Origin: Patescibacteria group bacterium
GTDB lineage: Bacteria; Patescibacteriota; Microgenomatia; Levybacterales; UBA12049
Assembly (NCBI GenBank): GCA_038062115.1
Contig: JBBTXS010000004.1
Location: 5,009 to 69,008, forward strand
Length of the DNA: 64,000 nucleotides
Reading direction: 5' to 3'
The position numbers were made by a program, and so were the translations under genes. The notes beneath the pieces were generated by a model. It saw only the letters and a program-made list of their open reading frames with translations. It did no database searches and was not told the DNA's origin. This document shows positions 1,731 to 51,626 of the stretch, in pieces (positions within the stretch are counted from its first letter, which is position 1; every line of letters starts with the position of its first letter).

Positions 1731-1741
1731 CTAGAATTTCT

Positions 1742-2458
1742 ATGAAATTATCTATTATTATCCCTGTTTTTAACGAAGAAAAAACAGTTGCTAAAATAGT
1801 TAAAAAAGTATCTCAAGTAGAAATTCCAGGTACTACAAAAGAGATTATTGTTGTTGATGATGGATCAACCGATGCGACAGCATCGGTAATTTCCAATTTC
1901 CAATTTCCAATTTCCAATTTCAAAAAGATTAGACATAAGAAAAATAAGGGTAAAGGAGCGGCGGTTAAAACAGGAATTGAAAACTCAACAGGCGACTATA
2001 TTGTTGTTCAGGATGCGGATTTGGAGTACAATCCAAAATACATAGAAAAACTCGTAAGACCTGTTTTGGAGGGAAAAAGCAAGGTTGTTTATGGTACTCG
2101 TCTTAAGCGTTTACCAAGTTTTTCTAAAGATGAAAGGACTCCTCGTTTTTTGCTTCATTATATTGGCAATAAGTTTTTAAGTCTTATCACAAGCCTTTTG
2201 TACGGGCAATGGATTACAGATATGGAGACTTGCTATAAAGTATTTCCGAAGATTGCTGTTGAGAATATTATTCTCAAGTCAAAAAGATTTGATTTTGAAC
2301 CAGAGATTACCGCAAAGTTATTAAAAAAAGGATACAAGATACACGAGATTCCAATAACGACAAATCCGAGAGGTTATAATGAAGGCAAGAAACTGAATAC
2401 ATTTAAAGATGGAACAATTGCCCTTTTTACATTACTAAAATTTCGATTTATAGATTGA
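1742..2458 (+). CDS. Family 2 glycosyltransferase, polyprenyl-phosphate sugar synthase-like (DPM1/GtrB/ArnC class)
   Basis: 238 aa. LSIIIPVFNEE, VVDDGSTD and VVQDADLEY (DXD) are GT-A/GT2 hallmarks. Its small size and position beside GT-C membrane proteins fit a lipid-carrier charging enzyme. Confidence 0.75.
   Translation: MKLSIIIPVFNEEKTVAKIVKKVSQVEIPGTTKEIIVVDDGSTDATASVISNFQFPISNFKKIRHKKNKGKGAAVKTGIENSTGDYIVVQDADLEYNPKYIEKLVRPVLEGKSKVVYGTRLKRLPSFSKDERTPRFLLHYIGNKFLSLITSLLYGQWITDMETCYKVFPKIAVENIILKSKRFDFEPEITAKLLKKGYKIHEIPITTNPRGYNEGKKLNTFKDGTIALFTLLKFRFID
1888..1922 (+). repeat. Heptanucleotide tandem repeat (AATTTCC)x4 plus one variant unit (AATTTCA) inside the GT2 CDS
   Basis: Read directly: aatttcc aatttcc aatttcc aatttcc aatttca. 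It is translated as ISNFQFPISNFKK in a variable loop between the DGSTD and NKGKG motifs. Confidence 0.9.
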
Positions 2459-2460
2459 TC

Positions 2461-10229: not shown

Positions 10230-10230
10230 A

Positions 10231-16400: not shown

Positions 16401-17924
16401 ATGAAAAAAATATTTAATAAATTTATAAAAAAGAAGAATTTTACATTTTTCCTATTGGCTATTGTAATTTTGGGGTCTATTCCGCGATCAATAGAGATAA
16501 TTAGTGGAAATTTTCTTTTTGGGTATGATCAGGGAGTTTTTTTCCAAGCAGTTAAGGAGATTATTGTTAATCATAAGCTTACTCTTATTGGTACGGAAGT
16601 AGGGGGTGGAGGTTTTTTTCAAGGTCCAGGATGGTACTATCTATTGTCAATATCTTTTTATCTATGGAGGGGAGATCCTTATGGAGGAATGATGCTCATG
16701 CTTATAGTAGGGGTTTTGACCATAGCGCTAAGTGTAGTTTTTGGAAGAAAAATATTTGATGGCAAAACTGCGTTAACAATTGGATTTTTTGTAGCCGTAT
16801 CTCCAGCAATTATAGCTCAATCTAGATTTATTTGGCCTCCTTTTGTGATATCTTTACTTTCTGTTTTCTTTGTTTTTTTTCTCTATAAAATTTTGCAAGG
16901 GTCGGGTAAATTTTTTCTTTTACTCACATTTATAGTTGGGCTCATGTTTCACTTTGAGACTGCTACGGGAGCAACTCTTCTTATTCAATTATTAATTATC
17001 TCGCTCTTATTTTTTATAAAGAAAATGGTTTCCTTGAAGTTTTATACTCTTGGCTTGTTGAGTTTTCTTTTTACGCAATTAAGTCTTTTTGTATTCGATA
17101 TCAGGCATGATTTTTTTAATATAAAGGGAATTATTAAAATGTTTACAAATAGCAATAAAGAAGATTCATTATTAAATAGAGTTGATTTGATAAGTAATCA
17201 TATTAGCGTTTTTAGGCAAAATTTCCTTTCTACTTTTCAGATGGCTGATTTGATTTGGCCACTTTTGCTTATAGTTTTATTTATTGGTCTAACATTTTAC
17301 TTTAAGGACAAAAAAAATAAAAAAGAAAAAAAATGGTTGGTTCTATATCTTGCAACTAGCCCTTTAACTTTATTTATTGTGTTTATTTTTTACCCATCAA
17401 CTATGTGGGAATGGTGGATTTTGGAATTAATGATTTTTTACTGTTTTTTATTTGGAGTTATTTTAACTTATTTATTAAAAAATAAATTAATGAGATTTTT
17501 AGTAGTGGCAGTATATATTATTTTCTTTTTATCTTTTGTAAATAAAACCATATTTTTTTATAACAATGACTTTAACGACTTTGGGGGTACGCAAAAAATA
17601 AAGGGAAAGATTGAGGCAATTGATTATATTTATAAAGACGCAAAGGGAAAGCAATTTGGGCTTTTGGTTTTTACTCCACCGGTTTACACTTATGCTTATG
17701 ATTATTTAGTATGGTGGCATGGAAAGAGAAAATATGGTTACATTCCTTTTCAAGAAAAGAAAGACACATTTTATCTACTTATTGAGCAGGATTATGCAAA
17801 GGCATGGAGTTATAAGGGGTGGCTCGAGACGGTTATAAAAACTGGTACAATACTTACGACAAAAGAACTGCCTAGTGGTTTTATTATTCAAAAACGTTTT
17901 AAAGATGAAAAAAGTAAGATATAA
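16401..17924 (+). CDS. Polytopic GT-C-like membrane protein, FGFDQ family (paralog 5)
   Basis: 507 aa. FGYDQGVFFQAVKEIIVNHKLTLIGTE...GPGWYYLL. The C-terminal module is nearly colinear with 13289-14824 (DFGGTQKIKGKIEAIDYIYKDAKGKQFGLLVFTPP...WHGKRKYGYIP...GWLETVIKTG). Confidence 0.65.
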   Translation: MKKIFNKFIKKKNFTFFLLAIVILGSIPRSIEIISGNFLFGYDQGVFFQAVKEIIVNHKLTLIGTEVGGGGFFQGPGWYYLLSISFYLWRGDPYGGMMLMLIVGVLTIALSVVFGRKIFDGKTALTIGFFVAVSPAIIAQSRFIWPPFVISLLSVFFVFFLYKILQGSGKFFLLLTFIVGLMFHFETATGATLLIQLLIISLLFFIKKMVSLKFYTLGLLSFLFTQLSLFVFDIRHDFFNIKGIIKMFTNSNKEDSLLNRVDLISNHISVFRQNFLSTFQMADLIWPLLLIVLFIGLTFYFKDKKNKKEKKWLVLYLATSPLTLFIVFIFYPSTMWEWWILELMIFYCFLFGVILTYLLKNKLMRFLVVAVYIIFFLSFVNKTIFFYNNDFNDFGGTQKIKGKIEAIDYIYKDAKGKQFGLLVFTPPVYTYAYDYLVWWHGKRKYGYIPFQEKKDTFYLLIEQDYAKAWSYKGWLETVIKTGTILTTKELPSGFIIQKRFKDEKSKI

Positions 17925-19578
17925 GAAATATTTATTTTTTATTGGCTTAATAGTTTTATCTTTTATTCCTCTTTTTGACTTACTTCATCCAGGGCTTCCA
18001 ATTACGCATGACGGTCAAGACCACGTGGCTCGTATTGCTAATTTTTACCAAAATCTAAAAGAAGGAAATATTATTCCAAGGTGGGCGCCGAATCTAAATT
18101 GGGGATACGGACATCCAATTTTGATGTTTTTGTATCCTCTGCCTTCGTATTTAGCTTCATTATTCCACTTTTTTGGATTCAGTCTGGTTGATAGCGTAAA
18201 ATTAGTTTTTGGCATATCTTTTATTTTGAGTGCTGTGGCAATGCATCTTTTTACTAAGGAATTACTAAATGATGAAAAAGCAGCATTTTTAGCAAGTTTA
18301 CTTTATGTGATTGCTCCATATAGATTCGTTGATTTATATGTGCGTGGTGCTGTTGGTGAACATGTTGCGTTTATTTTTCCACCCCTTATTTTTTATTTTC
18401 TCTTGAAGTTATCTAAGAAGTTTTCCAAGTGGTATCTTTTGGGAGGATCTTTGTCTTTGGCAGGACTGATTCTGTCACATAACGCAATAAGCTTAATGTT
18501 TTTTCCATTATTTTTTTTATACATTATATATCTTGTTTGGGGAAGCAAAGATAGAAAATACTTAATACTTAATACTTTCTACTTAATACTTTTGGGTTTA
18601 GGCTTATCTGCATTTTTCTTTATACCTGCATTTATGGAAGGAAAGTATACCTTGCGAGATATAGTTACAAGTGGTGGAGAATATAAGGCCAGTTTCGTAA
18701 TATGGAAAGACTTTTTCTACTCAACATGGAGTTATGGAGGTACGCTTGCCTTTAGTAAGCAAATAGGCATGATGCATTGGATTGGTATATTTAGTAGTGT
18801 TATTGCCACATATTATCTATATAAAAATAAAAATAAATTATGGATGGTGAGCTTAGGTGGCTTTCTTATTTTCTGGATAACGCTATTTTTAATGACATCT
18901 GCGTCTGCCACAATTTGGCAATCGATAACCCTACTTCAAAAGTTTCAATTTCCATGGAGATTTCTTTCCCTTACTGTTTTTTTAAGCGCATTGTTGGGCG
19001 CAATAGGATTGCAATTATTTAATGGTAAACATAAGACAGCTTTTCTATTAATACTTACCGTAGCCCTTTTGCTGGTAAATAAAGACTATTGGCATGCAAA
19101 TGGATTCTTGCAAAAACAAGAGAGTTTTTATAGCGGAATCTATAACGGTACTACAGATACCGGTGAGAGCGCGCCCATTTGGTCGGTAAGATTTATGGAA
19201 AAGAGGGCAAAAGCCAATATGGAGGTGATTGCAGGTGACGCAAGAATACGAGGAATAAAAAGAACCTCAACGAGTCATAAATACAAAATAATCGCAACGG
19301 AAAGATCAAGAATTAGGGAGAATACTTTATATTTCCCGGGTTGGGATGTTTTTGTAAACGGGAATAAGGCAGATGTTGAATTTCAGGATTCTCTCAATAG
19401 GGGTCTTATAACATTTTTTGTAGAAAAAGGAGAGAATGACGTTTATATTAAATTTAACGAGACAAAACTGCGGCTAGTTGCAGATATAATTACCGCCGCA
19501 ACATTGGCAGTTGTAGTATCCTATTTAGCATTTGGGCTCAAAAAGAAGTATAATCCCCGGGATGAAAAAGAAAAATAA
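17905..19578 (+). CDS. Polytopic membrane protein, THDG family (PTPS-related-domain / YfhO-like GT-C candidate), paralog 1
   Basis: Start at ATG 17905 (MKKVRYKKYLFF) by analogy with paralog 29290. HPGLPITHDGQDHVARI...PRWAPNLNWGYGHPILMFLYPLPSY. QFPWRFLSL. C-terminal YFPGWDVFVNGNKADVEF...ENDVYIKF is like YfhO tails. Confidence 0.55.
   Translation: MKKVRYKKYLFFIGLIVLSFIPLFDLLHPGLPITHDGQDHVARIANFYQNLKEGNIIPRWAPNLNWGYGHPILMFLYPLPSYLASLFHFFGFSLVDSVKLVFGISFILSAVAMHLFTKELLNDEKAAFLASLLYVIAPYRFVDLYVRGAVGEHVAFIFPPLIFYFLLKLSKKFSKWYLLGGSLSLAGLILSHNAISLMFFPLFFLYIIYLVWGSKDRKYLILNTFYLILLGLGLSAFFFIPAFMEGKYTLRDIVTSGGEYKASFVIWKDFFYSTWSYGGTLAFSKQIGMMHWIGIFSSVIATYYLYKNKNKLWMVSLGGFLIFWITLFLMTSASATIWQSITLLQKFQFPWRFLSLTVFLSALLGAIGLQLFNGKHKTAFLLILTVALLLVNKDYWHANGFLQKQESFYSGIYNGTTDTGESAPIWSVRFMEKRAKANMEVIAGDARIRGIKRTSTSHKYKIIATERSRIRENTLYFPGWDVFVNGNKADVEFQDSLNRGLITFFVEKGENDVYIKFNETKLRLVADIITAATLAVVVSYLAFGLKKKYNPRDEKEK
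18557..18591 (+). repeat. Heptanucleotide repeat block (AATACTT)x3 + TCTACTT + AATACTT inside CDS
   Basis: Read directly; translated KYLILNTFYLIL. 33 of 35 nt identical to 29936-29970 in the paralog. Confidence 0.9.
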
Positions 19579-19604
19579 ATTCCCATCGGCAGAAACTCTT
19601 GTAG

Positions 19605-20030
19605 CAACCAATTTCGGGAAATGTCGCAGAATCTTGCATAGAAATAAAACTAAGAGAGGCAGGATTAAAAAAAGATCTAAATTACAAACGAAGGTATAAG
19701 CGGAGCGATTTTACATTTTTTCATCCCGGTTTTAAAAGTTCTAGTGATATTCATAGGGTAGAAGTTAAGAATGTTGCCCTAAGAGAGAGGGGTGTTAGAG
19801 GATTATCATTTGACGGTGATAGTATGGTAGGGTTTTTTAATGAGGCTAAAGAATTTACTAAAGAGACTGTTAAAATTATAGATAAGTATTGTCGTAAAAC
19901 TGGAGGCTACTGTTATGTTCCGCCTGAAATCTTGAAAGAAATATTATCAAAACACAAAGCGAAAAGATTTAAATCAAACGACGAATTTGTAAGCGATATG
20001 AATCAATTTGTGAAATCAGGAATTATTTAA
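19605..20030 (+). pseudogene. Open frame without a credible start, convergent with the DNA methyltransferase; possible truncated restriction-endonuclease remnant (only the last 68 codons follow an ATG)
   Basis: The frame is open from 19605 (after TAG 19602-19604) to 20030: QPISGNVAESCIEIKLREAGLKK...HRVEVKNVAL...MVGFFNEAKEF... The first ATG is at 19824. An E-x-K-like string (ESCIEIK) sits at the extreme N-terminus with no upstream PD/D element. The 3' end overlaps the MTase 3' end by 15 nt. Confidence 0.3.
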
Positions 20031-20978
20031 GGGTGGTCTCCAAAAATCTAATATGTATTCAAACGTTGTTCCGAGTGTAATATAATTTGAAGGCCAACCA
20101 AAAATCCCGACGCCATTAACTAAATTCCTTCTGTCCCAAATTATAGTATTTCTAAGTTTGTATCCTGCTCTTTCGATCTCCTCGATTACATATATGTGAA
20201 GTGGAACCCTGTTATTTTCCCACCAAAGGTCAGTAATATTAATTACGCAATGGGCTTTGGGCTTGTGGAGCGGTAGCAATTTTTTGTAAATCTCTCCTAT
20301 TGCTTTTGCAAATTTTTTTGGCTCCATAGTCCCGAGATCTCTTGGATTACTTGAGTATTGTTGAACACTATCGTAATGTTCGTTTTTACGTTGATCTCCT
20401 CGTATGCTTTTGTTTTTTCTTTTTCTATTTAGCATGTTGGCATATGGAGGAGAAGTAACAGAGAGTGAAACAGTGTTTTTGTTGAGATAGTTAGAAATAT
20501 TGATGGCATCGTCACATATTGTTATTTGTTTGGTATCATCATAGATATCCAATTGTGATAGTCTTGTATTTGCATAATCAAGATATTTTTGACTTAGGTC
20601 AAAACCCACAGCGTTTCTTTGCAAGTCTTTTGCAGCGACCAAAGTTGTTCCAATGCCTACAAATGGATCCAGAACAAGCTCTCCCTTGTGAGTGAATATT
20701 TCTATACACTTGGTCGGAAGGTCTATAGGAAATACTGCTGGATGGATTTTTTTGTCTCGAACATCTCTTTTCTTGTACGCAAATTCCCATATAGCGACCT
20801 GATTTTTCATCCATTGTTTAGCGTCTAAACAGTTTATATGATTTGGTGGACAGGAACATGCTTTTTCGTGTCCTATGGAAAGTTTTAAAGAAGTTTTATC
20901 TTTTTTAGTTTTATATTTTTTAATATCACTTCCAAGTTCCATGTATGTTGGAACAGTTATAAGGTTAGGCATAGACAT
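20016..20978 (-). CDS. DNA methyltransferase, N4-cytosine/N6-adenine (N6_N4_Mtase type) with permuted motif order
   Basis: 320 aa. HPAVFPIDLPTKCIEIF...LVLDPFVGIGTTLVAAKDLQRNAVGFDLSQKYLDYANTRL (AdoMet motif I region) precedes VSLSVTSPPYANM (catalytic motif IV). A typical IIWDRRN-type block lies near the C-terminus. Confidence 0.8.
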   Translation of the reverse strand: MSMPNLITVPTYMELGSDIKKYKTKKDKTSLKLSIGHEKACSCPPNHINCLDAKQWMKNQVAIWEFAYKKRDVRDKKIHPAVFPIDLPTKCIEIFTHKGELVLDPFVGIGTTLVAAKDLQRNAVGFDLSQKYLDYANTRLSQLDIYDDTKQITICDDAINISNYLNKNTVSLSVTSPPYANMLNRKRKNKSIRGDQRKNEHYDSVQQYSSNPRDLGTMEPKKFAKAIGEIYKKLLPLHKPKAHCVINITDLWWENNRVPLHIYVIEEIERAGYKLRNTIIWDRRNLVNGVGIFGWPSNYITLGTTFEYILDFWRPPLNNS

Positions 20979-21243
20979 AGCATATCATATAATAGATAAG
21001 TCAATCAGTGCCCAGTATTAACACTTTGGGGGACGGTTCTGAGAAGGGTTGATAGGACAATCTAAGACGAAAGCTCTTTAATTTTATCCTCGATAAATCT
21101 CCGACTTAATCTTGATTTCGCCTGACAATCACAATCCAAGACATTGTCTCTACAGCTCCTCTTCTTTCGTTCCAACATTCTTCCTTCGGCGAGCTCAGGA
21201 CAAGTAATAACATTGGAATAAAAGATTATTGTATAATTAGCAT

Positions 21244-21355
21244 ATGACTGGGTCATAATTGTCATTTCGAGCTTGCCGAGAAATCTCCTTCAAAGAGATT
21301 CCTCGACTCGCTACACTCGCTCGGAATGACAAATGAGTATTTATGTCCCAGTCAC
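21244..21355 (+). mobile_element. MITE copy A (about 112 bp) with terminal and internal inverted repeats and a 9-bp target-site duplication AATTAGCAT
   Basis: Direct repeats aattagcat at 21235-21243 and 21356-21364. Termini are atgactgggtcataa and the reverse complement of gtgactgggacataa. Internal IR gtcatttcgagc/gctcggaatgac. About 90 percent identical to 37915-38027. The right TSD abuts ATG 21365. Confidence 0.85.
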
Positions 21356-21364
21356 AATTAGCAT

Positions 21365-22129
21365 ATGGCGACGGTTTCGGTGGTTTTAGCAACGTATAAC
21401 GAGGAAGAAAACTTACCATCGTGTTTGGAGTCGGTAAAAGACTTGGCAGATGAGATAGTAATAGTTGATGGATCATCAACGGACATAACTGTTCATGTTG
21501 CCAAAAAATATAAAGCAAAGATTTTAGTAACAGATAATCCGCCAATTTTTCATATTAATAAACAAAAAGCTATAAATATGGCGACAAAAGACTGGATTTT
21601 GCAACTTGATGCGGATGAAAGGGTTACGCCAGAACTTGCTAAAGAAATCAAATCACAAATCACAAATCACAAATCACAAATTCATGGTTATTGGATTCCT
21701 AGAAAAAATTGGTTTTTGGGAAGGTTTTTGATGAAAGGCGGACAGTATCCTGATTATACTCTAAGGCTTTACCGCAAAGGCAAAGGGAGGCTACCTCAAA
21801 AAAGCGTTCATGAGCAGGCTATTGTTGATGGAAAAACAGACTATCTTATACATCCTTTAATTCATATTGCGGATCCTAATTTTGCTAGGTATTTGAAGCG
21901 TTTTGATCGTTATACAGACTTAATAGCAAAAGAATTAAAAAGAAAAAAAATAGGATATAATCCAATGGTAGGAATAAAATATATGTTTGGTTTGCCTGTT
22001 TGGTGGTTTTTGTTCACATATATTCGTCATAAGGGTTTTATGGATTTTTGGCAAGGGTTTGTATTTTCATTTTTTTCGGCAATGAGATTTAGTGTTGGAT
22101 ATATAAAATATATAAAAATGCATGGTTAA
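21365..22129 (+). CDS. Family 2 glycosyltransferase
   Basis: 254 aa. VSVVLATYNEEENLPSCLESV...IVIVDGSSTD...LQLDADERV (DXD-type) are GT2 hallmarks. Confidence 0.75.
   Translation: MATVSVVLATYNEEENLPSCLESVKDLADEIVIVDGSSTDITVHVAKKYKAKILVTDNPPIFHINKQKAINMATKDWILQLDADERVTPELAKEIKSQITNHKSQIHGYWIPRKNWFLGRFLMKGGQYPDYTLRLYRKGKGRLPQKSVHEQAIVDGKTDYLIHPLIHIADPNFARYLKRFDRYTDLIAKELKRKKIGYNPMVGIKYMFGLPVWWFLFTYIRHKGFMDFWQGFVFSFFSAMRFSVGYIKYIKMHG
21645..21681 (+). repeat. Heptanucleotide tandem repeat (AAATCAC)x4 with partial flanking units inside GT2 CDS
   Basis: aaatca aaatcac aaatcac aaatcac aaatcac aaat (perfect units 21650-21677), translated KSQITNHKSQI in a loop after LDADERVTPELAKEI. Confidence 0.9.
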
Positions 22130-23654
22130 TAAAAATTTACATTTACCCAATAGCTATTTCTTTAAGAGGAAATGGTATCTTTGCTTACTGTTTTTTCTCA
22201 TCTTTTTTGCACTATTTCTTAGATTCTACAACTTTCCGTTACGATACGGTCTAGGTGATGAAACAGTTAGGGATGCGGTTGTCGGCATTCAAGGCGCAAG
22301 AGATCTACAACTTCCTCTGGTAGGCGCGTTTTCCTCCGCTGGGCCATTTACTTTTGGTCCCTGGTATTATTATCAATTAATAATATTTTCTCTTGTTTTT
22401 CCATCTCCCTACGCTTCTTGGATTTATCTAAGTTTAGGATCTGTGCTTTGCGTAGTTGTTCTTTATAAAATTGGAGAATTGGTAGAGAACAGAGCTTTTG
22501 GCTTGTTTCTTGCATTTCTTGGAACTTTATCTCCTGTTCTTATTATTGCTGGAACACATCTTACTACTCAAAACTTAACCAACATCTACGCATTATTAGC
22601 TGTATGGATATTTCTTAAGCTATCGCTTCAAAAGTTATCTAATTGGTGGGGTTTTATTTTTGGAATTGTTCTAGGGATCGGGGTCAATCTTCACTATCAA
22701 ATGGCTGGATTGCTCATCTTACCTATTATTCTTTTGGCGTACAAGCCTAAAAGGTTTTTGTATTTTTTTACTTCCCTTGTTGGTATAGGTGTTACATTTT
22801 TGCCCCTCCTGTTTTTTGATTTGAACAATCATTGGTTTACGTTTAGGAATCTCCTCTACTATTTTCAGTACGGAAAAAATGCCATTTATGTTCCAAATCG
22901 ATGGTTATTTTATCTTCGAGATTTCTGGCCATCATATTGGGGAGATGTTATTGGCATTTCGACAATTTTTGCATCTTTAATTATGCTGGTTTTCATTCTT
23001 ATTATTATTAGGCAAATTCAAAAAAAGAAATTGTCTATATATATGATTCTTTTGCTTCTTGCTTTTGCGGTTAATTTTATTCTCTTAAGATATTATTGGG
23101 GACCGCGTTTTTTTGGATATCTAAATTTCTTACGTCCCTTTGTTTTTCTGTTTACAGGATATGTTTTTTTTACAATATATAAAACAATAAATAAAAAATA
23201 TGCGCTTTTACTAATCGCGGCGTTTTTGGCTATCATTATATTGCCCAAAAGCATTAAACATCTTGATATTGATCCATTTTCTACAGAAATGATTAAAAGA
23301 GTTCAGGCTATAGAGGTAAACTATCCAGACAAAAAATTTAAGGTATATGGCTGTAAGGGTGTGTTTGGTGGTTGGCACACAGCGACAACAAAATCACTTG
23401 TTTTCCTGCTGGAGGGCAAAAATAAGTTTAGCGATTCGGGAGTGAAGCTGGGAGTACATGACTCCAGTTGTAAATATTCATCTTTAGAATCTTTAACAAT
23501 TAATGACGAGCAGTATCCCCTAATTTCCAATACGGGAATTATAGATTTTTCTCGCGCGACAGATAGTTGGCTTAAAGAAACTGGGTGGATTCCAATCTCT
23601 TTTCGGTCTATATCCGATGAGATTACGCGTTGGTGGTTCAAGGAGCAACCATAG
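22122..23654 (+). CDS. Polytopic GT-C-like membrane protein, FGFDQ family (divergent paralog 6)
   Basis: 510 aa. LGDETVRDAVVGIQGARDLQLPLVGA...FGPWYYYQL aligns with the FGFDQ.RD...GP.YYYLL loop of the other five. It has a different C-terminal domain. Overlaps the upstream stop by 8 nt. Confidence 0.55.
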   Translation: MVNKNLHLPNSYFFKRKWYLCLLFFLIFFALFLRFYNFPLRYGLGDETVRDAVVGIQGARDLQLPLVGAFSSAGPFTFGPWYYYQLIIFSLVFPSPYASWIYLSLGSVLCVVVLYKIGELVENRAFGLFLAFLGTLSPVLIIAGTHLTTQNLTNIYALLAVWIFLKLSLQKLSNWWGFIFGIVLGIGVNLHYQMAGLLILPIILLAYKPKRFLYFFTSLVGIGVTFLPLLFFDLNNHWFTFRNLLYYFQYGKNAIYVPNRWLFYLRDFWPSYWGDVIGISTIFASLIMLVFILIIIRQIQKKKLSIYMILLLLAFAVNFILLRYYWGPRFFGYLNFLRPFVFLFTGYVFFTIYKTINKKYALLLIAAFLAIIILPKSIKHLDIDPFSTEMIKRVQAIEVNYPDKKFKVYGCKGVFGGWHTATTKSLVFLLEGKNKFSDSGVKLGVHDSSCKYSSLESLTINDEQYPLISNTGIIDFSRATDSWLKETGWIPISFRSISDEITRWWFKEQP

Positions 23655-23660
23655 AATAAT

Positions 23661-24635
23661 ATGAGAATTTTAGTAACCGGTGGCGCTGGATACATTGGAA
23701 GTTTTATGACAAAAAGACTTCTTGATGGTAGGCATAAGGTGACTGTTATTGATAGTTTAGAAAGAGGAGACAGGGATGCAGTTGATAAAAGAGCACAGTT
23801 TAAGCAGGGGGATTTAAAAAACCTAAGTTTTCTTGAAAGCTTTTTCTCTAAAAATTCCTTTGACGCAGTCATGCATTTTGCAGGATATATATCTGTTGAA
23901 GAATCAACCAAGAATCCAAGCTTATATTACAAAAATAATGTAGTTGGTTCTAAAAACCTTTTTTTATCAGCAGTAAAGAAAGGCCACGTTAACAAGTTTA
24001 TCTTTTCATCTAGTGCTGCTGTTTATGGAAATCCTAAAGTTATTCCAATTCCGGAAAGCCACCCCAAAAATCCGACCAGCCCTTATGGAAAAGGTAAACT
24101 TGAAGTTGAAAAAATGCTTGAGTCTTTTCAGAAAGAGAAAGGATTAAACGTTGTAAGCCTTCGCTATTTTAATGCTGCAGGCGCAGCATTTAACGGTTCA
24201 ATGGGGGAAGAACACAATCCCGAAACCCATATTATTCCACTGGCAATAAATGCTGTACTTAAGGGTAAAGAATTTATCCTCTACGGAAACGATTATAAAA
24301 CTCCTGATGGAACTTGCATTCGAGATTATATTCATGTTGTTGATCTTGTGGATGCTCATATTTTGGCTCTTGATAAATTAAAGAAGGACAAGGGTGGATT
24401 TTTCTATAATGTAGGGACTGGAAAAGGATATTCCAATAAGGAAGTTATAGAAATGGTCAAGAAGATAAGTGGAGTTGACTTTAAGGTAAAAATTGAAAAC
24501 AGACGATCAGGCGATCCAGAACGACTAATCGCTGATCCGACGCTTATTCAAAAAGAATTAGGATTTAAACCACAGTATTCAGATATTGCAACTATAGTGG
24601 AAACTGCTTGGGAATGGCATAAAAAAAATTATTAA
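23661..24635 (+). CDS. galE: UDP-glucose 4-epimerase
   Basis: 324 aa. MRILVTGGAGYIGS, SSSAAVYG, YGKGKLEVEKML (YxxxK), LRYFNAAGA and IRDYIHVVDL are colinear with GalE. Confidence 0.8.
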   Translation: MRILVTGGAGYIGSFMTKRLLDGRHKVTVIDSLERGDRDAVDKRAQFKQGDLKNLSFLESFFSKNSFDAVMHFAGYISVEESTKNPSLYYKNNVVGSKNLFLSAVKKGHVNKFIFSSSAAVYGNPKVIPIPESHPKNPTSPYGKGKLEVEKMLESFQKEKGLNVVSLRYFNAAGAAFNGSMGEEHNPETHIIPLAINAVLKGKEFILYGNDYKTPDGTCIRDYIHVVDLVDAHILALDKLKKDKGGFFYNVGTGKGYSNKEVIEMVKKISGVDFKVKIENRRSGDPERLIADPTLIQKELGFKPQYSDIATIVETAWEWHKKNY

Positions 24636-24653
24636 TTCATGTTACGCATCTTT

Positions 24654-24797
24654 TGTCATTTCGAGCTTGACGGGTTACCGTACGGTAACCCGTCTTGTCG
24701 AGAAATCTTTATCACCGTAGTTGCGAGAGATCCCTCGGCTTCGGGAGGCACTGTCTGGTGTATCCCTTCGCTCGGGATGACAGGTTATAAGGCGAGC
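24654..24797 (+). mobile_element. MITE-family variant carrying a nested 24-26-nt perfect palindrome
   Basis: The 5' end tgtcatttcgagcttg matches MITE A/B. Then comes gacgggttaccg-ta-cggtaacccgtc (24669-24694) bracketed by cttg...cttg, then tcgagaaatc as in A/B. The 3' end gctcgggatgacaggttataaggcgagc resembles the 3' end of the CDS-embedded copy at 30306-30327. Confidence 0.7.
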
Positions 24798-24804
24798 TAT
24801 TTCA

Positions 24805-25350
24805 ATGAAAGTTAAAAATTTCAAATTGAAACCTATTCTGTGTTACCTTATTGCTACACTATACTTCATGTTTTTAACAACAGCAATATTTGCAGAATCA
24901 AGCTACGTTCTTCCTTATCCATCCGCAATGCAGGGAAGCAAGTTTTATACAATTAGCTTGATATGGGATGAAATTAGAAAATATTGGTATTTTGGTGATT
25001 TTGGGCAGTTTAAATATAATCTTGGTGAATCAGATAAGTATTTAGTTGAGGCCAAAACGCTTTTTGAATATAAGCAGTATTTTTTAGGACTTAATGCGCT
25101 TCGTAAGTCAAAAGACTATTATAATAAATCTCATCCATTTTTATTAAAAGCTCACTATAAAGGAAAAGATACGAGGAAGAATTTGATATTATTTGAATCT
25201 GCATCAGCAAAACATATAGAAATTCTACTAAAGATGAAGAGTGAGGTTCCAGAAGAATTTACTTGGGAGCCAGAAAAGTCACCTCCAACAAAGCTTTACT
25301 TACATAAAGAAATAGAAAACTCTATAAATGTTAGACAAAAAGAGGGATGA
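24805..25350 (+). CDS. Hypothetical exported/anchored protein (DUF5667-like N-terminal region)
   Basis: 181 aa. N-terminal hydrophobic helix, then SSYVLPYPSAMQGSKFY...GESDKYLVEAKTLF, reminiscent of small helical CPR exported proteins. ATGA coupling to the next gene. Confidence 0.4.
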   Translation: MKVKNFKLKPILCYLIATLYFMFLTTAIFAESSYVLPYPSAMQGSKFYTISLIWDEIRKYWYFGDFGQFKYNLGESDKYLVEAKTLFEYKQYFLGLNALRKSKDYYNKSHPFLLKAHYKGKDTRKNLILFESASAKHIEILLKMKSEVPEEFTWEPEKSPPTKLYLHKEIENSINVRQKEG

Positions 25351-26462
25351 AAAAAATTTTATATATTAGTTATTTTGTTTTTTTATGTTTTGTTTGTTTT
25401 TTCTCCTATTTATTTGTTGATAGAAATTTAAAATTTATCAGTTTATTCTTCTCTGGGTTTAGTTCCAGCAACAGGTTTTCTACCTCCATAATTTATACAG
25501 GTATTGTAATAATTTTTTTTCTATTTTACTTGCTTTTCATAAGATTTTTTTCCAAAAATAAGCTTGATGGCAAGGATATCAAAACACTCATTGTACTTAC
25601 CTGCGTTGTATTATTTTTTTCTTATCCTGCCATGTTATCCTATGATATTTTTAATTACATTCTTACTGCAAAAGTAACCTTTTTTTACCAGGAAAACCCA
25701 TATATAGTAATGCCAAATGAATTTGTAAACGATCCATTTTTGGCATTTACAAGAGCAACTAATAAAATTGCCCTGTATGGTCCGGTATGGCTTATTTTAA
25801 GCGGTTTTCCTCACTTTTTAGGTTTTGGAAACTTTGTCCTGACGCTTTTTGGCTTTAAACTTGTTGCTCTCGTATTTTATTTATTATTTTTATTAATTTT
25901 AAAAAAAATTTCTGGAAATGATAAAGCTGTTTTATTGTTTGGGCTAAACCCTTTGGTAATTTTAGAGACATTGGTAGGAGCGCATAATGATATTGTAATG
26001 ATTTTTTTGGTTTTATTTGCGATGTATCTTGCAAAAGCAAAAAAATTGTTTTATATGATCACATTTTTTGTTCTTTCGTTCTTGATAAAGTACTCAACTA
26101 TAGCTCTTCTTCCAATTTTTATTTTTATTTTTATAAAAATAGTTAGAAAAGAACAACTAAATTGGTCAAAAATTTATCTCGTAAGCTTAATCTTGATGTT
26201 TCTGATTTTTTTACTCTCTCCAATAAGAGAAGAAATGTATCCTTGGTATGCAATATGGTTTTTGCCATTTGTAGTATTGCAGTACAAAAATAAAATTTTT
26301 AAATATTTGTCAATATCTTTATGTTTTGGTTTGCTTCTAAGGTATATTCCATTTATTTATTTGGGGACATATCTCGAACCTACTCCAACTATTAGGCAAA
26401 TAGTGACTTTTGTTCCAACTGCTTTATTTTCTTTATTTTATGTTATTAAAAAGAAGATTTGA
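25347..26462 (+). CDS. Polytopic membrane protein, GT87/DUF2029-like mannosyltransferase candidate
   Basis: 371 aa. SYDIFNYILTAKVTFFYQENPY...ALYGPVW...GLNPLVILETLVGAHNDIVMIFL resembles the DUF2029/GT87 pattern (NP...HND). Confidence 0.55.
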   Translation: MKKILYISYFVFLCFVCFFSYLFVDRNLKFISLFFSGFSSSNRFSTSIIYTGIVIIFFLFYLLFIRFFSKNKLDGKDIKTLIVLTCVVLFFSYPAMLSYDIFNYILTAKVTFFYQENPYIVMPNEFVNDPFLAFTRATNKIALYGPVWLILSGFPHFLGFGNFVLTLFGFKLVALVFYLLFLLILKKISGNDKAVLLFGLNPLVILETLVGAHNDIVMIFLVLFAMYLAKAKKLFYMITFFVLSFLIKYSTIALLPIFIFIFIKIVRKEQLNWSKIYLVSLILMFLIFLLSPIREEMYPWYAIWFLPFVVLQYKNKIFKYLSISLCFGLLLRYIPFIYLGTYLEPTPTIRQIVTFVPTALFSLFYVIKKKI

Positions 26463-28041
26463 CATTTTTATCATTATATTGTTTTTTCTTTTTTCTTGGT
26501 GGTTAATGGATAAGTCTTTTCGATACGATAATATTAGCCATCAGTTCTTAATTGCCAGGCATCAGATTGGAGATTTTGGACTCCACTTGTCGCTTGTTCG
26601 TTCTTTTTCGTGGGGCGATAATTTTCCAGTAGAGTCTCCATTTTTTCCGGGCACACCGCTTGCGTATCATTATTATTTCGATTTGCTGGTCGGGTTATTG
26701 GAGAAGGTGGGTGTTCGCATAGACGTTGCATTTAATGGCTTAAGCATTTTGTTTTTTTCATTATTATTATATGTCATATATAGGTTACCTCAGATAATCT
26801 TTAAAAAAAGTAAGCTTTTAGGCATGTTATCTGTTATCTTATTCGTATTTCATAGCAATCTTACTTTCATTGATTTTTTAAAGGAGAAGGGATTATCTCT
26901 TTATGCTATTTCTGATCTTTGGCGTCTTCCTGACTACATAAACAAAGGCCCGTTTGACGGGTCGTTAATATCAATTTTTTTTACTATGAATGTTTATCTT
27001 AATCAGCGGCATTTAATTGCTGCTTTAGCGATAAGCTTAATAGCGTTTCTTATTTTGATACCTATGGTTACAAAACATCATAAGAGTCCATACAGAATTA
27101 TTATATTCTTAGGTTTGATTTTAGGCTTAGTATCCCGCGTACATACTCTAGTATTTTTTTCTGCGGCAATTAGCATACTGATCTTTCTTATTGTATTTAG
27201 ACGTTTTCGCTTTATTTTCTTATTCTTTGTTCCATTAACAGTTGTTTTTTTCTTTCATGCAAAAGATATCCTTACGCAAGATCTTAACCATGCATTATTT
27301 AATATTGGATTTTTATCTGAAAAACCTTTTTCTATTTTGAATTTCGCTTCTTTTTGGTTTGCAAATTTAGGACTGGCAATTTTTATGGCGCCTGTTGGAT
27401 TTTTTCTATCCAATAATAAACAGAAGAAAATTTTCTTATGTTTTTTCTCTCTTTTTATCCTAGCCAACATTCTCCAATTTAGTTATAGAATAGACCACAA
27501 TCACTCAATGCTTAATTTATTTATTATAATTGCTAATTTCTACATAGCTAATACTTTGCTAATGCTATGGAAAGGGAAAATAAAAAAGATTATTTTCTTC
27601 TTTTTGCTTTTTCTGTTAACTTTTTCAGGAATCATAGATCTTATGGCAGTTAAAAATGATTTTCATTATCCGCTTCTTGATGCTCCTTCCAATAAGTTTA
27701 TGCAGTGGGTTAAAAATAATACAAAAAAAAAGGATATTTTTTTAGCAAAACAGGAGATTCTTGATCCAATAACATTATCGGGAAGATATAATTACTTAGG
27801 CCACGATTACTATCTTTCTGTAATGGGATACGATACAACACAGAGGAAATTCCTTGCGAAAACATTTTTTGAGGCAGATAGTCTTGAAATAATAGATGAA
27901 ATGAAAAAAGATAATATTAAATATATTGTAATACCTCAAAAGCCCATTGCTGATTTTGCCTATAAGACAAATAAGGTTTTTTTGGATAGAAGTTTAAAAA
28001 AAGCGTATAAAGATGAAAATGTGATTGTCTATCAATTATGA
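26440..28041 (+). CDS. Polytopic membrane protein, FPPxNP family (paralog of 3996-5981)
   Basis: The start is ambiguous (ATG 26410 or 26440, both overlapping the upstream gene). Carries HLSLVRSFSWGDNFPVESPFFPGTPLAYHYYFDLL. Confidence 0.55.
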   Translation: MLLKRRFDIFIIILFFLFSWWLMDKSFRYDNISHQFLIARHQIGDFGLHLSLVRSFSWGDNFPVESPFFPGTPLAYHYYFDLLVGLLEKVGVRIDVAFNGLSILFFSLLLYVIYRLPQIIFKKSKLLGMLSVILFVFHSNLTFIDFLKEKGLSLYAISDLWRLPDYINKGPFDGSLISIFFTMNVYLNQRHLIAALAISLIAFLILIPMVTKHHKSPYRIIIFLGLILGLVSRVHTLVFFSAAISILIFLIVFRRFRFIFLFFVPLTVVFFFHAKDILTQDLNHALFNIGFLSEKPFSILNFASFWFANLGLAIFMAPVGFFLSNNKQKKIFLCFFSLFILANILQFSYRIDHNHSMLNLFIIIANFYIANTLLMLWKGKIKKIIFFFLLFLLTFSGIIDLMAVKNDFHYPLLDAPSNKFMQWVKNNTKKKDIFLAKQEILDPITLSGRYNYLGHDYYLSVMGYDTTQRKFLAKTFFEADSLEIIDEMKKDNIKYIVIPQKPIADFAYKTNKVFLDRSLKKAYKDENVIVYQL

Positions 28042-29285
28042 AACGTTTTTTGCCTCCTGTTATTATTTTTTTTATTGCATTTTTTGTTTATTTTGCAGTA
28101 GGAACACAATACAGGTTCAATCCCAAATGGACACTGGATTATCACAATTTATTGACGCAATCACTTATCAATTTTCGACTGGATATACCAAATCCTCCAA
28201 CAACATACGATCTTGCTTACTTTGGTGGAAAGTGGTATACGACATGGGGTATCATTCCTGCCTTAATCCTCATTCCATTACAGTATATTAGAGGACAATT
28301 TACTCCAACGTTTTACCTTTCTATCTTTTTTTCTAGCATGAACATCGTGCTTATGTATTTCCTATTGCTTCGTATTAAGCGAGAGTTCTTGCCACAAATG
28401 TCTTCTTTTAGGATATTCATTTTTCTTCTCCTTTTTGCATTTGGAACAACGCAGTTCTACGTTGGTACGCTAGGGAGTGTGTGGCATGTTGATCAGATAA
28501 CAACATCGTTTTTGGGAATGGTAGGTATTTACATTGTTTTTCGAAAGAAGCGAAGATTTATCCATTACCTAACTTCGATAATATTTTTTAGCGCAACACT
28601 TCTGGGAAGACCAACAAACGTACTTTTATGTCTTTTACCCATAACGCTTTATGTATGCGATCCTTCGGTAAGAACTATGCTTACTTTTGCAACTAAGACG
28701 AGAGCGGTTTTTGCAAGGCAGGTAATCCTTTTATGCCTGCCATTTTTCATTTTTTTATCTATGTTTTTCCTTTTCAATTACGTCAGATTTAACAACCCAC
28801 TTGAGTATGGATTTAATTACATTCATGAAACCGAGCATCTACAGCAGTTACGAGAAAAAAATGGACCGTTTTCGATTAGAAATGTTCCGCAAAATCTTTG
28901 GTATATGCTGCTTGAAATACCAAGCTTAAGCTTCGAAGAAAATATTGATCTTAATTTTAATCTTAAAGGTAATTCCATATTTTTCTTAACTCCGCCGCTT
29001 CTTGCTATATTTTTGGCGTCTCCAGTTATGAAAAGAGGAAAAAGAATCGTGTTTCATCCATACATAAGTTCTTTATGGATTACCTCAATTATTACAATTA
29101 TCCCAAGCTTGATGCATCACAGCAGTGGTTGGATGCAGTTTGGATACAGATACGCATTAGACGTTAACGTGCTATTAATGGTTCTTTCTGTTTTCGGGAT
29201 GAATGGCAAAGTAAATATTCTATATATTGCTGGTACCTTGTTTGCTATAGTGCTTTACATGGTAGGAATCACAAAATTGATGTAG
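28038..29285 (+). CDS. Polytopic membrane protein, GT-C-like (ArnT/PMT_2-like candidate)
   Basis: 415 aa with about 10 hydrophobic segments. First-loop DLAYFGGKWYTTWGIIPALILIPL resembles the D.(S/A)YY.GK.Y.Y.GP.P pattern of ArnT-like proteins. ATGA overlap at 28038-28041. Confidence 0.5.
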   Translation: MKRFLPPVIIFFIAFFVYFAVGTQYRFNPKWTLDYHNLLTQSLINFRLDIPNPPTTYDLAYFGGKWYTTWGIIPALILIPLQYIRGQFTPTFYLSIFFSSMNIVLMYFLLLRIKREFLPQMSSFRIFIFLLLFAFGTTQFYVGTLGSVWHVDQITTSFLGMVGIYIVFRKKRRFIHYLTSIIFFSATLLGRPTNVLLCLLPITLYVCDPSVRTMLTFATKTRAVFARQVILLCLPFFIFLSMFFLFNYVRFNNPLEYGFNYIHETEHLQQLREKNGPFSIRNVPQNLWYMLLEIPSLSFEENIDLNFNLKGNSIFFLTPPLLAIFLASPVMKRGKRIVFHPYISSLWITSIITIIPSLMHHSSGWMQFGYRYALDVNVLLMVLSVFGMNGKVNILYIAGTLFAIVLYMVGITKLM

Positions 29286-29289
29286 TAAT

Positions 29290-31032
29290 ATGAAAGGTAG
29301 ATTATATTCGTTCTTAGCAGTTGTCACAATTCTATTTTTTGCGTTTTTAGCAGGTTTTGCTCTTTTGCATCCTGGGCTGCCGCCTACTCATGATGGCGAG
29401 TATCATGTTATTAGGTTTTATGAATTTGACAAGACATTAAGAGATGATGATTGGTACCCTCGTTGGGCTCCAGACTTAAATAACGGTTTTGGGATTCCAC
29501 TTTTTAACTATGTCTATCCCTTGCCAAACTATTTTTCCTTCATATTGCATCTATTTGGAGTAAGTTTTATTGATGCTTTTAAGCTTAATATGTTTTTTGC
29601 CACAATAATTGGTTCAGCATTTTTTTATTTATGGGCAAGAGAGTTTTGGGGAACAATGGGCGGCGTTGTTTCTTCGGTTTTCTATACCTTTTCTCCATAT
29701 CATTTCGTAGAAATTTATATTAGGGGTTCTGTTGGAGAGGTGTGGGCATTAGCTTTTTTCCCTGCGTTTTTGTGGGCATTTACAAGATTTGTTAAAAATA
29801 AACAAAAAATATTTTTGGCATTTTCTTCTTTATTTTTGGCATTAATTATATTTTCTCACAATATTCTAGCCTTAATGTTTTTCTTTTTCGCTTTATCTTA
29901 CATTGTTTTTTTAATTGCTCAAGTAACGAATAAGAAATACTTAATACTTAATACTTTACACTTAATACTTATTAGTCTTGGCTTATCTTCTATATTTTGG
30001 TTACCTGCAATACTGGAGAGTAACCTTGTAAAAGGACTTGAGATTTTTGATTTAACCGCTCATTTTCCAGATTTATATCAATTGTTAATTCCTTCTTGGG
30101 GATCGGGATTTTCAGGCGAAAGCTTAAACAATCAACTTTCATTTCAAATAGGAATTGCGAATTTATTGGCAGTATTATTAAGTATATTGTTGGTTACTTT
30201 TAAAATATGTAATTTTCGCATTTTTCGTCATTCTGGGGAGCGTAGCGACTCCAGAATCAAAAACAGATTCTGGACAAGACGGGTACCAGACGGTAACCCG
30301 TCAAGCCAGAATGACGGTAAGGCGAGCGCCGTTATTTTCTTTCTGGTTTTCTTTTTCTTTACTTTCTTTTTGATGCTCAAAGCATCTCAACCCATCTGGA
30401 ATAATGCTCCACTAATGAATTACTTTCAATTCCCATGGCGTTTTTTAAGCCTTGAAATTATATTTTCCTCATTTTTGGCTGGAAGCATTATATATTTTTG
30501 TAAATCTAAGATTCTCGCAATTTTCTTGATACTTCTTACTTTTTCTTTAGGGATAGGATACACAAAACCAGCTTATTATCATTACAGAGATGATAATTAT
30601 TATCTCACCCGGTCAAATTTTATCGATGGAACAAATAGCCCTGGTAATGTTTTTAATACAATCTTTTTTAAAACAGATCTAAAAAAACAAAAAGAAAAAT
30701 TATTTTTTTTAGAGGGTAGTGGAAAAATTAATCAAGAGATAGTTAAAAGCACGCGGTATGCTTTTGATATAAAAGCAGAGAAGGATTCAGAAATAAGAGT
30801 AAATACAGCTTATTTTCCGGGATGGGTTATTAAATTAGATGGCAAAAGAATAAAACCTAAAATAGCGAGTAGTGGACTATTTTCATTTAGTATTCCAGAA
30901 GGCCAACACCTTGTTGAGATCAAGTTTACGGATACTCCTGCAAGGATTATAGGAGCATTTGGCTTTATTTTATCATCGTTTATTCTTATTGCTTTGTCTA
31001 TTAGGGTTGTGTTTGCTACAATTAGAAGATGA
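29290..31032 (+). CDS. Polytopic membrane protein, THDG family (PTPS-related-domain / YfhO-like GT-C candidate), paralog 2
   Basis: 580 aa. HPGLPPTHDGEYHVIRF...PRWAPDLNNGFGIPLFNYVYPLPNY, QFPWRFLSL and C-terminal YFPGWVIKLDGKRIKP...QHLVEIKF are colinear with 17905-19578. Confidence 0.55.
   Translation: MKGRLYSFLAVVTILFFAFLAGFALLHPGLPPTHDGEYHVIRFYEFDKTLRDDDWYPRWAPDLNNGFGIPLFNYVYPLPNYFSFILHLFGVSFIDAFKLNMFFATIIGSAFFYLWAREFWGTMGGVVSSVFYTFSPYHFVEIYIRGSVGEVWALAFFPAFLWAFTRFVKNKQKIFLAFSSLFLALIIFSHNILALMFFFFALSYIVFLIAQVTNKKYLILNTLHLILISLGLSSIFWLPAILESNLVKGLEIFDLTAHFPDLYQLLIPSWGSGFSGESLNNQLSFQIGIANLLAVLLSILLVTFKICNFRIFRHSGERSDSRIKNRFWTRRVPDGNPSSQNDGKASAVIFFLVFFFFTFFLMLKASQPIWNNAPLMNYFQFPWRFLSLEIIFSSFLAGSIIYFCKSKILAIFLILLTFSLGIGYTKPAYYHYRDDNYYLTRSNFIDGTNSPGNVFNTIFFKTDLKKQKEKLFFLEGSGKINQEIVKSTRYAFDIKAEKDSEIRVNTAYFPGWVIKLDGKRIKPKIASSGLFSFSIPEGQHLVEIKFTDTPARIIGAFGFILSSFILIALSIRVVFATIRR
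29936..29970 (+). repeat. Heptanucleotide repeat block (AATACTT)x3 + TACACTT + AATACTT inside CDS
   Basis: Read directly; translated KYLILNTLHLIL. Same architecture and codon phase as 18557-18591. Confidence 0.9.
30226..30327 (+). mobile_element. MITE-family element embedded in-frame in the THDG-family CDS (about 102 nt, 34 codons)
   Basis: Perfect 11-bp IR cgtcattctgg (30226-30236) / ccagaatgacg (30306-30316). Inner palindrome acgggtaccagacggtaacccgt is bracketed by caag...caag. Tail gtaaggcgagc is shared with 24654-24797. Translated FRHSGERSDSRIKNRFWTRRVPDGNPSSQNDGKAS. The paralog 17905-19578 has no counterpart (YKNKNKLW). Confidence 0.8.
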
Positions 31033-51592: not shown

Positions 51593-51626
51593 AATTTGAA
51601 ATTGGTATTATTTGAAATTAAATGAT

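Follow-up and report, generated by a model that had tools for sequence, protein, structure and literature searches.

In-frame heptanucleotide microsatellites at conserved sites of envelope-glycan glycosyltransferase genes in Levybacteria and their relatives

In a metagenome-assembled groundwater genome of a Candidatus Levybacteria (Microgenomates, candidate phyla radiation (CPR)), two genes predicted to encode membrane glycosyltransferases, here called T1 and T2, carry a nearly identical block of five 7-nucleotide (nt) units within sequences that are otherwise only distantly similar. The stretch of DNA analyzed, 64 kb long and referred to below as the window, is according to Pfam scans an envelope-glycan cluster over its whole length, with positions 1–31 kb filled with GT-C and GT2 genes and positions 32–64 kb holding sugar-nucleotide enzymes, GT2/GT4 genes, a flippase, and methyltransferases. 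The two blocks are copies of one coding heptanucleotide microsatellite, located at the same site in two anciently duplicated genes, and they are not a special pair but members of a class of in-frame period-7 arrays that extends across the lineage and uses many different units. The probable explanation is that these microsatellites are born by slippage and kept uniform by homogenization, and that they serve neither as a switch by deletion or inversion nor, probably, as a high-frequency ON/OFF switch. The two genes and their blocks are as follows.

T1 gene: 17905..19578, plus strand; GT-C-fold membrane glycosyltransferase (predicted), PF10131 (PTPS_related); database protein P0001, 557 amino acids (aa), 100% identical
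T2 gene: 29290..31032, plus strand; paralog of T1, PF10131 with a C-terminal YfhO match
T1 heptamer block: 18557..18591, plus strand; AATACTT x3, TCTACTT, AATACTT; encodes (K)YLILNTFYLIL
T2 heptamer block: 29936..29970, plus strand; AATACTT x3, TACACTT, AATACTT; encodes (K)YLILNTLHLIL

The blocks are identical at 33 of 35 bases, with a longest perfect common run of 23 nt (AAATACTTAATACTTAATACTTT), and both are read in codon phase 1, at offset 652 from the ATG at 17905 in T1 and at offset 646 from the ATG at 29290 in T2, so that the translated blocks are KYLILNTFYLIL and KYLILNTLHLIL, respectively. Apart from the 23-nt run and the start-codon positions, this had been described in the original prediction, an earlier reading of the window's sequence, and its block sequences, coordinates, identity, codon phase, and encoded peptides were reproduced in full. 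That the paralogs are otherwise dissimilar also stands, the block being an extreme outlier, although the earlier by-eye figure of about 40% gives way to a computed 34% residue identity (50% base identity). The block is the most similar 36-nt window of the two genes (34/36), above the catalytic motifs, and the next non-overlapping windows reach 27 matches at most. Tandem Repeats Finder (TRF) reports period 7 with 5.0 and 5.1 copies and 85–86% matches; only three units (21–23 nt) are perfect, and these are followed by a variant unit and then by one further unit. For the 14-mer AATACTTAATACTT, the window has five occurrences where 0.01 would be expected.

The assignment of T1 and T2 as GT-C-fold membrane glycosyltransferases is a prediction from profile and model evidence. 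Their PF10131 scores are 39.7 and 53.3 bits, respectively, against a cut-off of 26.4, and the YfhO (PF09586) match of T2 scores 28.8 bits against a cut-off of 28.5. An AlphaFold2 model of T1 exhibits the GT-C fold with a predicted template modeling score (pTM) of 0.85, and its best Foldseek matches are STT3, PglB, Pmt4, ArnT, and AftA/AftD, with E values down to 2e-5. In this model the block encodes the first 12 residues of a predicted transmembrane helix, 227–244, with a predicted local distance difference test score (pLDDT) above 90, right after the basic loop KDRK. The consensus peptide of the T2 orthologs here is KKYLILNT[FL]YLILLGLGLS, which is common among T1 orthologs too. Because the closest T1 ortholog has an unrelated insert at this point, the site appears to be permissive, tolerating almost any hydrophobic or loop sequence. 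Database copies of the T1 and T2 proteins, encoded on a 375-kb contig, are 100% identical to those of the window, and the orthologs are named Levybacteria.

A second pair of genes in the window, here called G1 and G2, carries arrays of the complementary heptamer.

G1 gene: 8529..10229, plus strand; GT-C glycosyltransferase of the PMT / PMT_2 family (Pfam)
G2 gene: 10195..12024, plus strand; PMT_2 family, tandem paralog of G1 (38.5% identical), with three array regions
G1 array: 9734..9765, plus strand; AAGTATT/AAGTATC type; encodes VSSIKYYVLS
G2 array: 11527..11558, plus strand; GTATCAAGTATTAA x2.3; encodes VSSIKYQVLSI

These AAGTATT-type arrays occupy homologous positions and form the top 36-nt window of their pair (31/36), so that the reverse-complement arrays proposed earlier for the G pair are confirmed at 9734–9765 and 11527–11558. 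The accompanying claim that four arrays of one heptamer cannot be chance holds for their number, which is beyond chance, but not for a count of four events, as there are two array sites, each inherited or shared within a paralog pair.

The interruption of the blocks is explained by a constraint of the reading frame. Because 7 = 1 mod 3, successive units of a heptamer array fall in all three phases, and one cyclic 7-codon peptide results in every frame. The cycle of AATACTT is YLILNT plus a stop, so that TAA arises in every frame, as it likewise does for the complement AAGTATT, and a perfect AATACTT array within a gene is therefore limited to about 22 nt. Unit 4 is broken because a perfect array would carry this TAA. 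The variant unit lies exactly on the would-be TAA in four of four arrays, reading TTC in T1, TTA in T2, TAT in G1, and CAA in G2, and the stop is avoided by a different change in each paralog of a pair (T1 versus T2, G1 versus G2).

The wider occurrence of such arrays was surveyed in 80 loci around T1 orthologs from GTDB species-representative genomes, with flanks of at most 10 kb on each side. The period-7 statistics cover 81 Microgenomates sequences (1.5 Mb in total) from T1-centered loci, mainly glycan clusters, with arrays detected by TRF and expectations taken from Markov shuffles. Period 7 is represented by 117 arrays against 0.7 expected, an excess of about 170-fold, period 14 by 69 against 20, and period 21 by 16 against 2.7, and the remaining periods lie at most about four-fold above expectation (period 12, for example, with 30 against 14). 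Open frames contain 183 of 202 arrays, or about 90%, and most of these belong to genes homologous to the glycosyltransferase genes of the window, where each family has a small number of conserved array sites with a unit that varies by species. The 117 period-7 arrays fall into 57 unit classes. Array density by gene class is given below.

GT-C genes: 12.2 arrays per 100 kb
GT2/GT4 genes: 15.4 arrays per 100 kb
Other cluster genes: 7.8 arrays per 100 kb
Genes outside the cluster: 1.7 arrays per 100 kb

Glycosyltransferase genes are thus 7–9 times denser in arrays than non-cluster genes, and the concentration of arrays in these genes raised by the original prediction is upheld. At the T site, the site of the block in T1/T2 orthologs, close relatives preserve AATACTT codon for codon; other species have units of their own, of which five are listed here, with several further species-specific units in addition.

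T site, L010 T2: CTATACG, 4.7 copies
T site, L043 T1: TTATTGG, 5 copies
T site, L055 T1: TATTCAC, 4.7 copies
T site, L006 T1: CTACATA, 4.7 copies
T site, L025 T1: CTATTAG, 4.6 copies

Period-7 autocorrelation at the T site is at least 0.7 in 14 of 159 family members, and no other period attains this value. Copy number between species varies at tolerant sites, ranging from 3.7 to 7.1 units at G site 450, and is near-constant, at 4.6–5.6 units, at the T site; arrays are short overall, with 3–9 units. Such a lineage-wide, glycan-gene-associated class of in-frame heptamers is apparently undescribed so far, no report having been found in the literature on heptanucleotide repeats in Patescibacteria.

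The codons of the block provide a second line of evidence. Given the peptide, the codon set of the block has a probability of 1.2e-5 under genome codon usage, and the codons used include the non-preferred TAC (25%), ATA (37%), and ACT (29%). Where T1 and T2 share a residue, the codon is identical in 84% of cases within the block versus 44% elsewhere (49 paralog pairs from nine motif-bearing genomes); for the pair in the window the corresponding counts are 10/10 and 64/149. Across species the top-codon fraction is about 0.95 in the block versus 0.59 in control conserved columns. In T1 and T2, then, a local patch lies far above its flanks in similarity, synonymous sites included.

Paralogs within one genome may also share a unit that other genomes lack. 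In L010 both T1 and T2 are of CTATACG type, with the block tying for the most similar window of that pair, in L033 the G1 and G2 genes share an AAGACTT unit, and in L008 the most similar window of the G pair is the array. The T1/T2 and G1/G2 duplications are older than these species, the pairs being about 35–45% identical in every genome examined. As the duplications predate the species and yet the paralogs share a genome-specific unit, the simplest reading of these sequence patterns is that they suggest short-tract exchange (gene conversion) between paralogous arrays within a genome.

Taken together, these results lead us to prefer a reading of the arrays as a tolerated product of mutational bias over one in which selection maintains them as a device for switching or regulation. 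Arrays would be created by replication slippage, believed to favor 7-nt units, and would persist where almost any hydrophobic or loop sequence can be accommodated. Homogenization within an array would wipe out single-unit variants, while selection would retain the one variant unit that avoids the stop, and short-tract conversion would occasionally act between paralogous arrays. Intra-array homogenization would then account for the near-frozen synonymous sites of the block, and short-tract conversion for the presence of the same unit in T1 and T2 within a genome.

Several points weigh against this interpretation. Homogenization and conversion are deduced from patterns. The near-constant length of the T-site array is awkward for pure slippage, because the frame survives only changes of three units. 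The strong synonymous conservation across species could reflect a function at the DNA or RNA level, and the enrichment in envelope-glycan genes, together with intergenic and 5' positions, fits what is predicted for contingency loci, the gene-class enrichment having been determined in T1-centered loci. Few independent lineages underlie the co-variation of units between paralogs, and a tract of 35 nt does not suffice for a tree test. A permutation test of T1/T2 block identity within versus between genomes gives p = 0.0075, a value that is confounded by base composition and that is not leaned on here because base composition differs between genomes.

Of the alternatives, one that retains some plausibility, although we judge it improbable, is that the arrays are contingency loci, in which hypermutable repeats switch glycosyltransferase genes ON and OFF and so give varied envelope glycans, perhaps of benefit in evading phages or in dealing with hosts. 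Switching would proceed by slipped-strand gain or loss of one unit, causing a frameshift, or by homogenization of the variant unit to the TAA stop. The unit length is indeed not divisible by 3, arrays cluster in genes for envelope glycans and at intergenic junctions or the 5' ends of genes, the same sites have remained repetitive for long evolutionary periods during which the unit turned over, and a precedent exists in the CAAACAC repeats, 5–34 copies, of phase-variable Neisseria pglE (PMC5953494). Yet not one of about 180 coding arrays in the 81 genomes splits its gene by a frameshift, and the T1/T2 orthologs examined are all intact. The flagged frameshift cases, seven arrays, all fall at gene junctions, as do most of the 19 arrays outside open frames, notably at the junction of galE and the next gene. 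No array insertions or deletions are seen among ten strain assemblies of one species carrying the T2 ortholog P0128 (99.4–100% identical), which is a weak test as the arrays there are degenerate, nor among five independent assemblies that represent the source population in the Hainich wells H41 and H51, which is weak as well for near-clonal genomes (the arrays are identical and the array-bearing segments clonal). The arrays are moreover short, and the T1/T2 block, interrupted after its three perfect units, cannot be lengthened without a stop. Phase variation by these arrays is accordingly considered unlikely.

About equally improbable is a broader proposal, according to which Microgenomates maintain dedicated in-frame heptanucleotide arrays at fixed sites of envelope-glycan genes, with selection acting on the repetitiveness itself and not on the sequence. 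The arrays could then serve as low-frequency reversible switches, by frameshift or by a hidden TAA restored through intra-array conversion, or alternatively as a platform for a nucleic-acid-binding factor of heptamer periodicity, and ectopic conversion would keep the arrays of paralogs matched. If true, ultra-small, host-dependent bacteria would possess a contingency or regulatory architecture of a new kind.

Somewhat less probable again is a functional element of the DNA or mRNA that is specific to the sequence or to the repeat. Candidates are an array of 7-nt sites for a single-strand-binding protein of the cold-shock-protein type, each heptamer binding one protein; a pause in translation where the membrane helix begins, brought about by non-preferred codons; and RNA pairing of G (AAGUAUU) with T (AAUACUU) arrays on a polycistronic transcript. 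The near-invariant synonymous sites and the non-preferred codons described above fit such a role, the arrays are unstructured in predicted RNA folds, with no stable local structure (z-scores +1.1, +0.6, +1.4, and -1.3), and would be accessible, and CspB is reported, in a statement cited in PMC4679880, to bind heptamer direct repeats. T-site and G-site arrays, furthermore, fall in one rotation/reverse-complement class in only 1.3% of random pairs. These points have to be set against the turnover of the unit: as lineages differ entirely in the unit found at a given site, there is no requirement for a particular sequence, and the complementarity of G and T is not conserved, the T site of L010 being CTATACG and its G site AAATATC/AAGTATT. 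No Rfam family matches the arrays. AATACTT also fails as a favored unit, with 62 stretches in viral contigs against 33, 66, and 29 in composition-matched controls.

The proposal made in the original prediction, that the arrays are recombination substrates, fares considerably worse. Direct copies in T1 and T2 were to delete 11.4 kb and leave an in-frame chimera, and inverted copies in the G and T genes were to flip segments of 7–20 kb. T1 and T2 do have a perfect match of 23 bases, directly oriented and read in one codon phase, so that a crossover there would be in frame, and the co-variation of paralogs points to sequence exchange between copies. Against the deletion, no T1/T2 chimera is found among 240 homologs, and T2 lies downstream of T1 on the same strand in 45 of 46 cases in the 80 related genomes. 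Against the inversions, the G genes lie upstream of T1 on the same strand in 142 of 143 cases, gene order and strand thus being conserved, and the inverted G and T arrays have only 13–15 perfect bases in common. Many species carry these ancient arrays and show no rearrangement. A search of the complete genome for a nearby recombinase had also been proposed; Pfam scans of the window's open reading frames (ORFs) of at least 170 aa detect no recombinase, integrase, invertase, or transposase family, ten of these ORFs, membrane-protein-like, matching no family. A role of the blocks as a DNA-rearrangement switch is therefore not supported and, as far as consensus genome sequences go, is largely refuted, leaving it very unlikely.

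Finally, ordinary protein-level conservation of a transmembrane motif, with codon bias yielding the DNA likeness by chance, is compatible with the consensus peptide at the site but has next to no probability, because chance and protein-level conservation alike are ruled out by the shuffles and the codon tests, 7-nt periodicity has no protein-level reason, and other lineages have unrelated peptides at the T site that are still encoded by period-7 DNA.

Additional arrays are found elsewhere in the window. Over the window as a whole, perfect period-7 arrays number five against 0.02 expected.

Array 1888..1921, plus strand: perfect AATTTCC x4.9, in frame in the GT2 gene 1742–2458; encodes ISNFQFPISNF
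Array 10578..10622, plus strand: degenerate AAATCAC/AAATTCA, in a variable loop of G2
Array 10679..10707, plus strand: perfect TGGAAAA x4.1, in frame in G2; encodes ENGKWKMEN
Array 21649..21681, plus strand: perfect CAAATCA x4.7, in frame in the GT2 gene 21365–22129; encodes IKSQITNHKSQI
Array 51579..51603, no strand assigned: intergenic AATTTGA x3.6, just upstream of the epimerase gene that starts at 51612

At the site of the first of these, arrays occur also in L019, L039, and L063, and the site of the 21649–21681 array has 14 arrays with other units in other species.

Arrays at the junction of galE with the next gene are a recurrent observation in the survey, occurring in L001 (13364), L069 (13424), L005 (14878), L011 (3199), L002 (14881), L033 (13802), L037 (13429), L018 (13358), and L004 (14880). 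Their unit differs per species, and their location varies from the galE 3' end through the spacer to the initial codons of the next gene, which encodes 172–181 aa of unassigned function and whose translation initiation an array there could affect. The window's own galE spacer (24636–24804) is without an array. A single unit can recur as well: GCTATTT, giving the peptide LFAICYLLFAI, is present at the G2-family site near aa 464 in L030, L039, L042, L052, and L069 and also at a YfhO-family site near aa 261 in L058, and thus at helix sites of two distinct GT-C families in different genomes, which could represent convergence on membrane-compatible units or movement of arrays between sites.

A scan of metagenomes of the Joint Genome Institute (JGI) for AATACTT x3 returned, among the matches listed, unrelated organisms, no Levybacteria, and no overlap with GT-C homologs, and 72 of 80 of these listed matches are not spanned by an open frame. 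In these metagenomes AATACTT is thus a common, generic repeat and not special in itself. Three JGI contigs, L150 (3808–3828), L105 (739–759), and L130 (666–686), have in-frame AATACTT arrays encoding KYLILNT within long ORFs that do not match the ten GT-C query proteins of the window (for example TNKYLILNTCYLILN, within an open frame of about 716 codons and 33% GC) and that may be further membrane proteins with an AATACTT array.

Another type of insertion in these genes involves GC-rich nested palindromic elements, present in frame in T2 (30226–30316) and in G1 (8888–8951). The T2 element has outer arms CGTCATTCTGG/CCAGAATGACG and inner arms TCCAGAATC/GATTCTGGA and is translated as RHSGERSDSRIKNRFWTRRVPDGNPSSQNDG; it has no counterpart in T1, and most T2 orthologs are 25–40 aa shorter than the T2 of the window. 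The G1 element, with arms TTCACCCCCGAGGAG...CTCCCCCGAGGTGAA, is translated as SPPRSRFATSRGWPNGLPRGE. Both look like elements of the miniature inverted-repeat transposable element (MITE) or repetitive extragenic palindromic (REP) type that are read through as protein, as palindromic elements of Rickettsia also are. In the T1 orthologs P0002 (77% identical) and P0075, the heptamer-encoded segment is replaced by SEESRSLPRHLRGVISK and SEEPKSLLRHLRGGTKSLLGGVS, respectively, which is probably another palindromic-element insertion at the same permissive site.

The spacing of T1 and T2 is 11.4 kb in the window versus 5–9.4 kb in relatives. Compared with L083 (9.4 kb), the extra 1.8 kb or so of the window carries a minus-strand gene for an N4/N6 DNA methyltransferase (PF01555, 20016–20978), situated between T1 and the next GT2 gene and absent from the syntenic L083, where the GT2 gene directly follows T1; it is probably an inserted orphan or restriction-modification methylase. 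On a larger scale, GC skew is positive in nearly all 2-kb bins of the window (1–64000) and the plus strand holds 56 of the 62 listed ORFs, which suggests a leading-strand location of the entire cluster within one replichore.

Differences between assemblies were noted at two places. Alignment of L215, from Hainich well H51, with window positions 725–2886 places all 42 mismatches (42/42) within 2637–2881, outside the array-bearing segment and inside an unannotated membrane-protein gene (2455–3999), with 725–2636 identical, a pattern that looks like a sharp recombination or strain-mosaic boundary. In L084, one strain of the species carrying the T2 ortholog P0128, an epimerase gene is split by a 26-nt tandem duplication at 20198–20223 (TTATACGTGGAAGATGCGGTTGATTT), its two products measuring 244 and 84 aa.

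CPR/Patescibacteria are believed to rely on touching other cells. Leading candidates for the genes behind such contacts are found in their extensive, rapidly evolving glycosylation clusters, and in the present sample these clusters are studded with in-frame 7-base microsatellites. Array positions that are held for very long while the unit changes offer a testable handle on envelope diversification, whether by mutational bias, gene conversion, or switching, and the unexplained excess of heptamers in bacteria is extended from intergenic into coding DNA. For annotation, the arrays account for odd low-complexity peptides in CPR proteins, such as ISNFKFQISNF, KLEIGNWKLEI, and YLILNTFYLIL, and they caution that nucleotide-identical patches in paralogs should not be taken as recombination switches.

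The closest known relatives of these arrays are the heptamer simple sequence repeats (SSRs) of other bacteria. In the accounts drawn on here (PMC4692102 and PMC4679880, which summarize the survey of Mrazek et al. 2007), heptamers are the most abundant long simple repeats in many bacteria, slippage linked to the polymerase has been proposed as a cause, and unit lengths divisible by 3 tend to prevail among coding repeats; examples include the short tandemly repeated repetitive (STRR) heptamers of cyanobacteria, GGGAATC of Xanthomonas/Nostoc, and TAACTGA of Beggiatoaceae. As described in those accounts, such repeats resemble the arrays reported here in that 7-nt tandem units lie far above expectation while other periods lie near it and in that unit and length vary between related genomes at the same locus, the length here at tolerant sites, and TAACTGA too contains stops in forward orientation, limiting its overlap with genes. 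The published SSRs are, however, by the same accounts overwhelmingly intergenic, often with one favored unit per genome, whereas those of the present CPR lineage are about 90% in frame, fall into 57 unit classes among 117 arrays, and occupy conserved sites in glycosyltransferase families.

Phase-variable loci offer a second comparison. In Neisseria, the glycosyltransferase gene pglE contains a CAAACAC tract (PMC5953494), and in H. influenzae the hmw1A/hmw2A promoters contain 7-bp repeats (PMC8262952); in both cases a heptamer, not divisible by 3, likewise lies in or just upstream of a surface-glycosylation gene. Tracts in pglE are of considerable length, have no interruptions, and vary strongly between strains, OFF alleles being numerous, whereas the arrays here have few units, are interrupted in T1/T2, include no OFF allele at about 180 arrays, and show no length differences between strains, the last being a weak comparison in degenerate arrays or near-clonal genomes.

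Concerted evolution by short-tract gene conversion is resembled in the short patch that stands far above its flanks and in the derived states that paralogs within a genome appear to share. Unlike the usual conversion tract, the patch measures only about 35 nt and coincides with a microsatellite, and homogenization within arrays and exchange between them are inseparable here.

A final comparison is provided by the coding tandem repeats of Borgs, in which perfect repeats inside ORFs also encode low-complexity peptide segments. Their units are reportedly multiples of 3 and are said to create disordered regions, unlike the arrays described here, in which 7-nt units are read in all three phases and often provide the sequence of a membrane helix.

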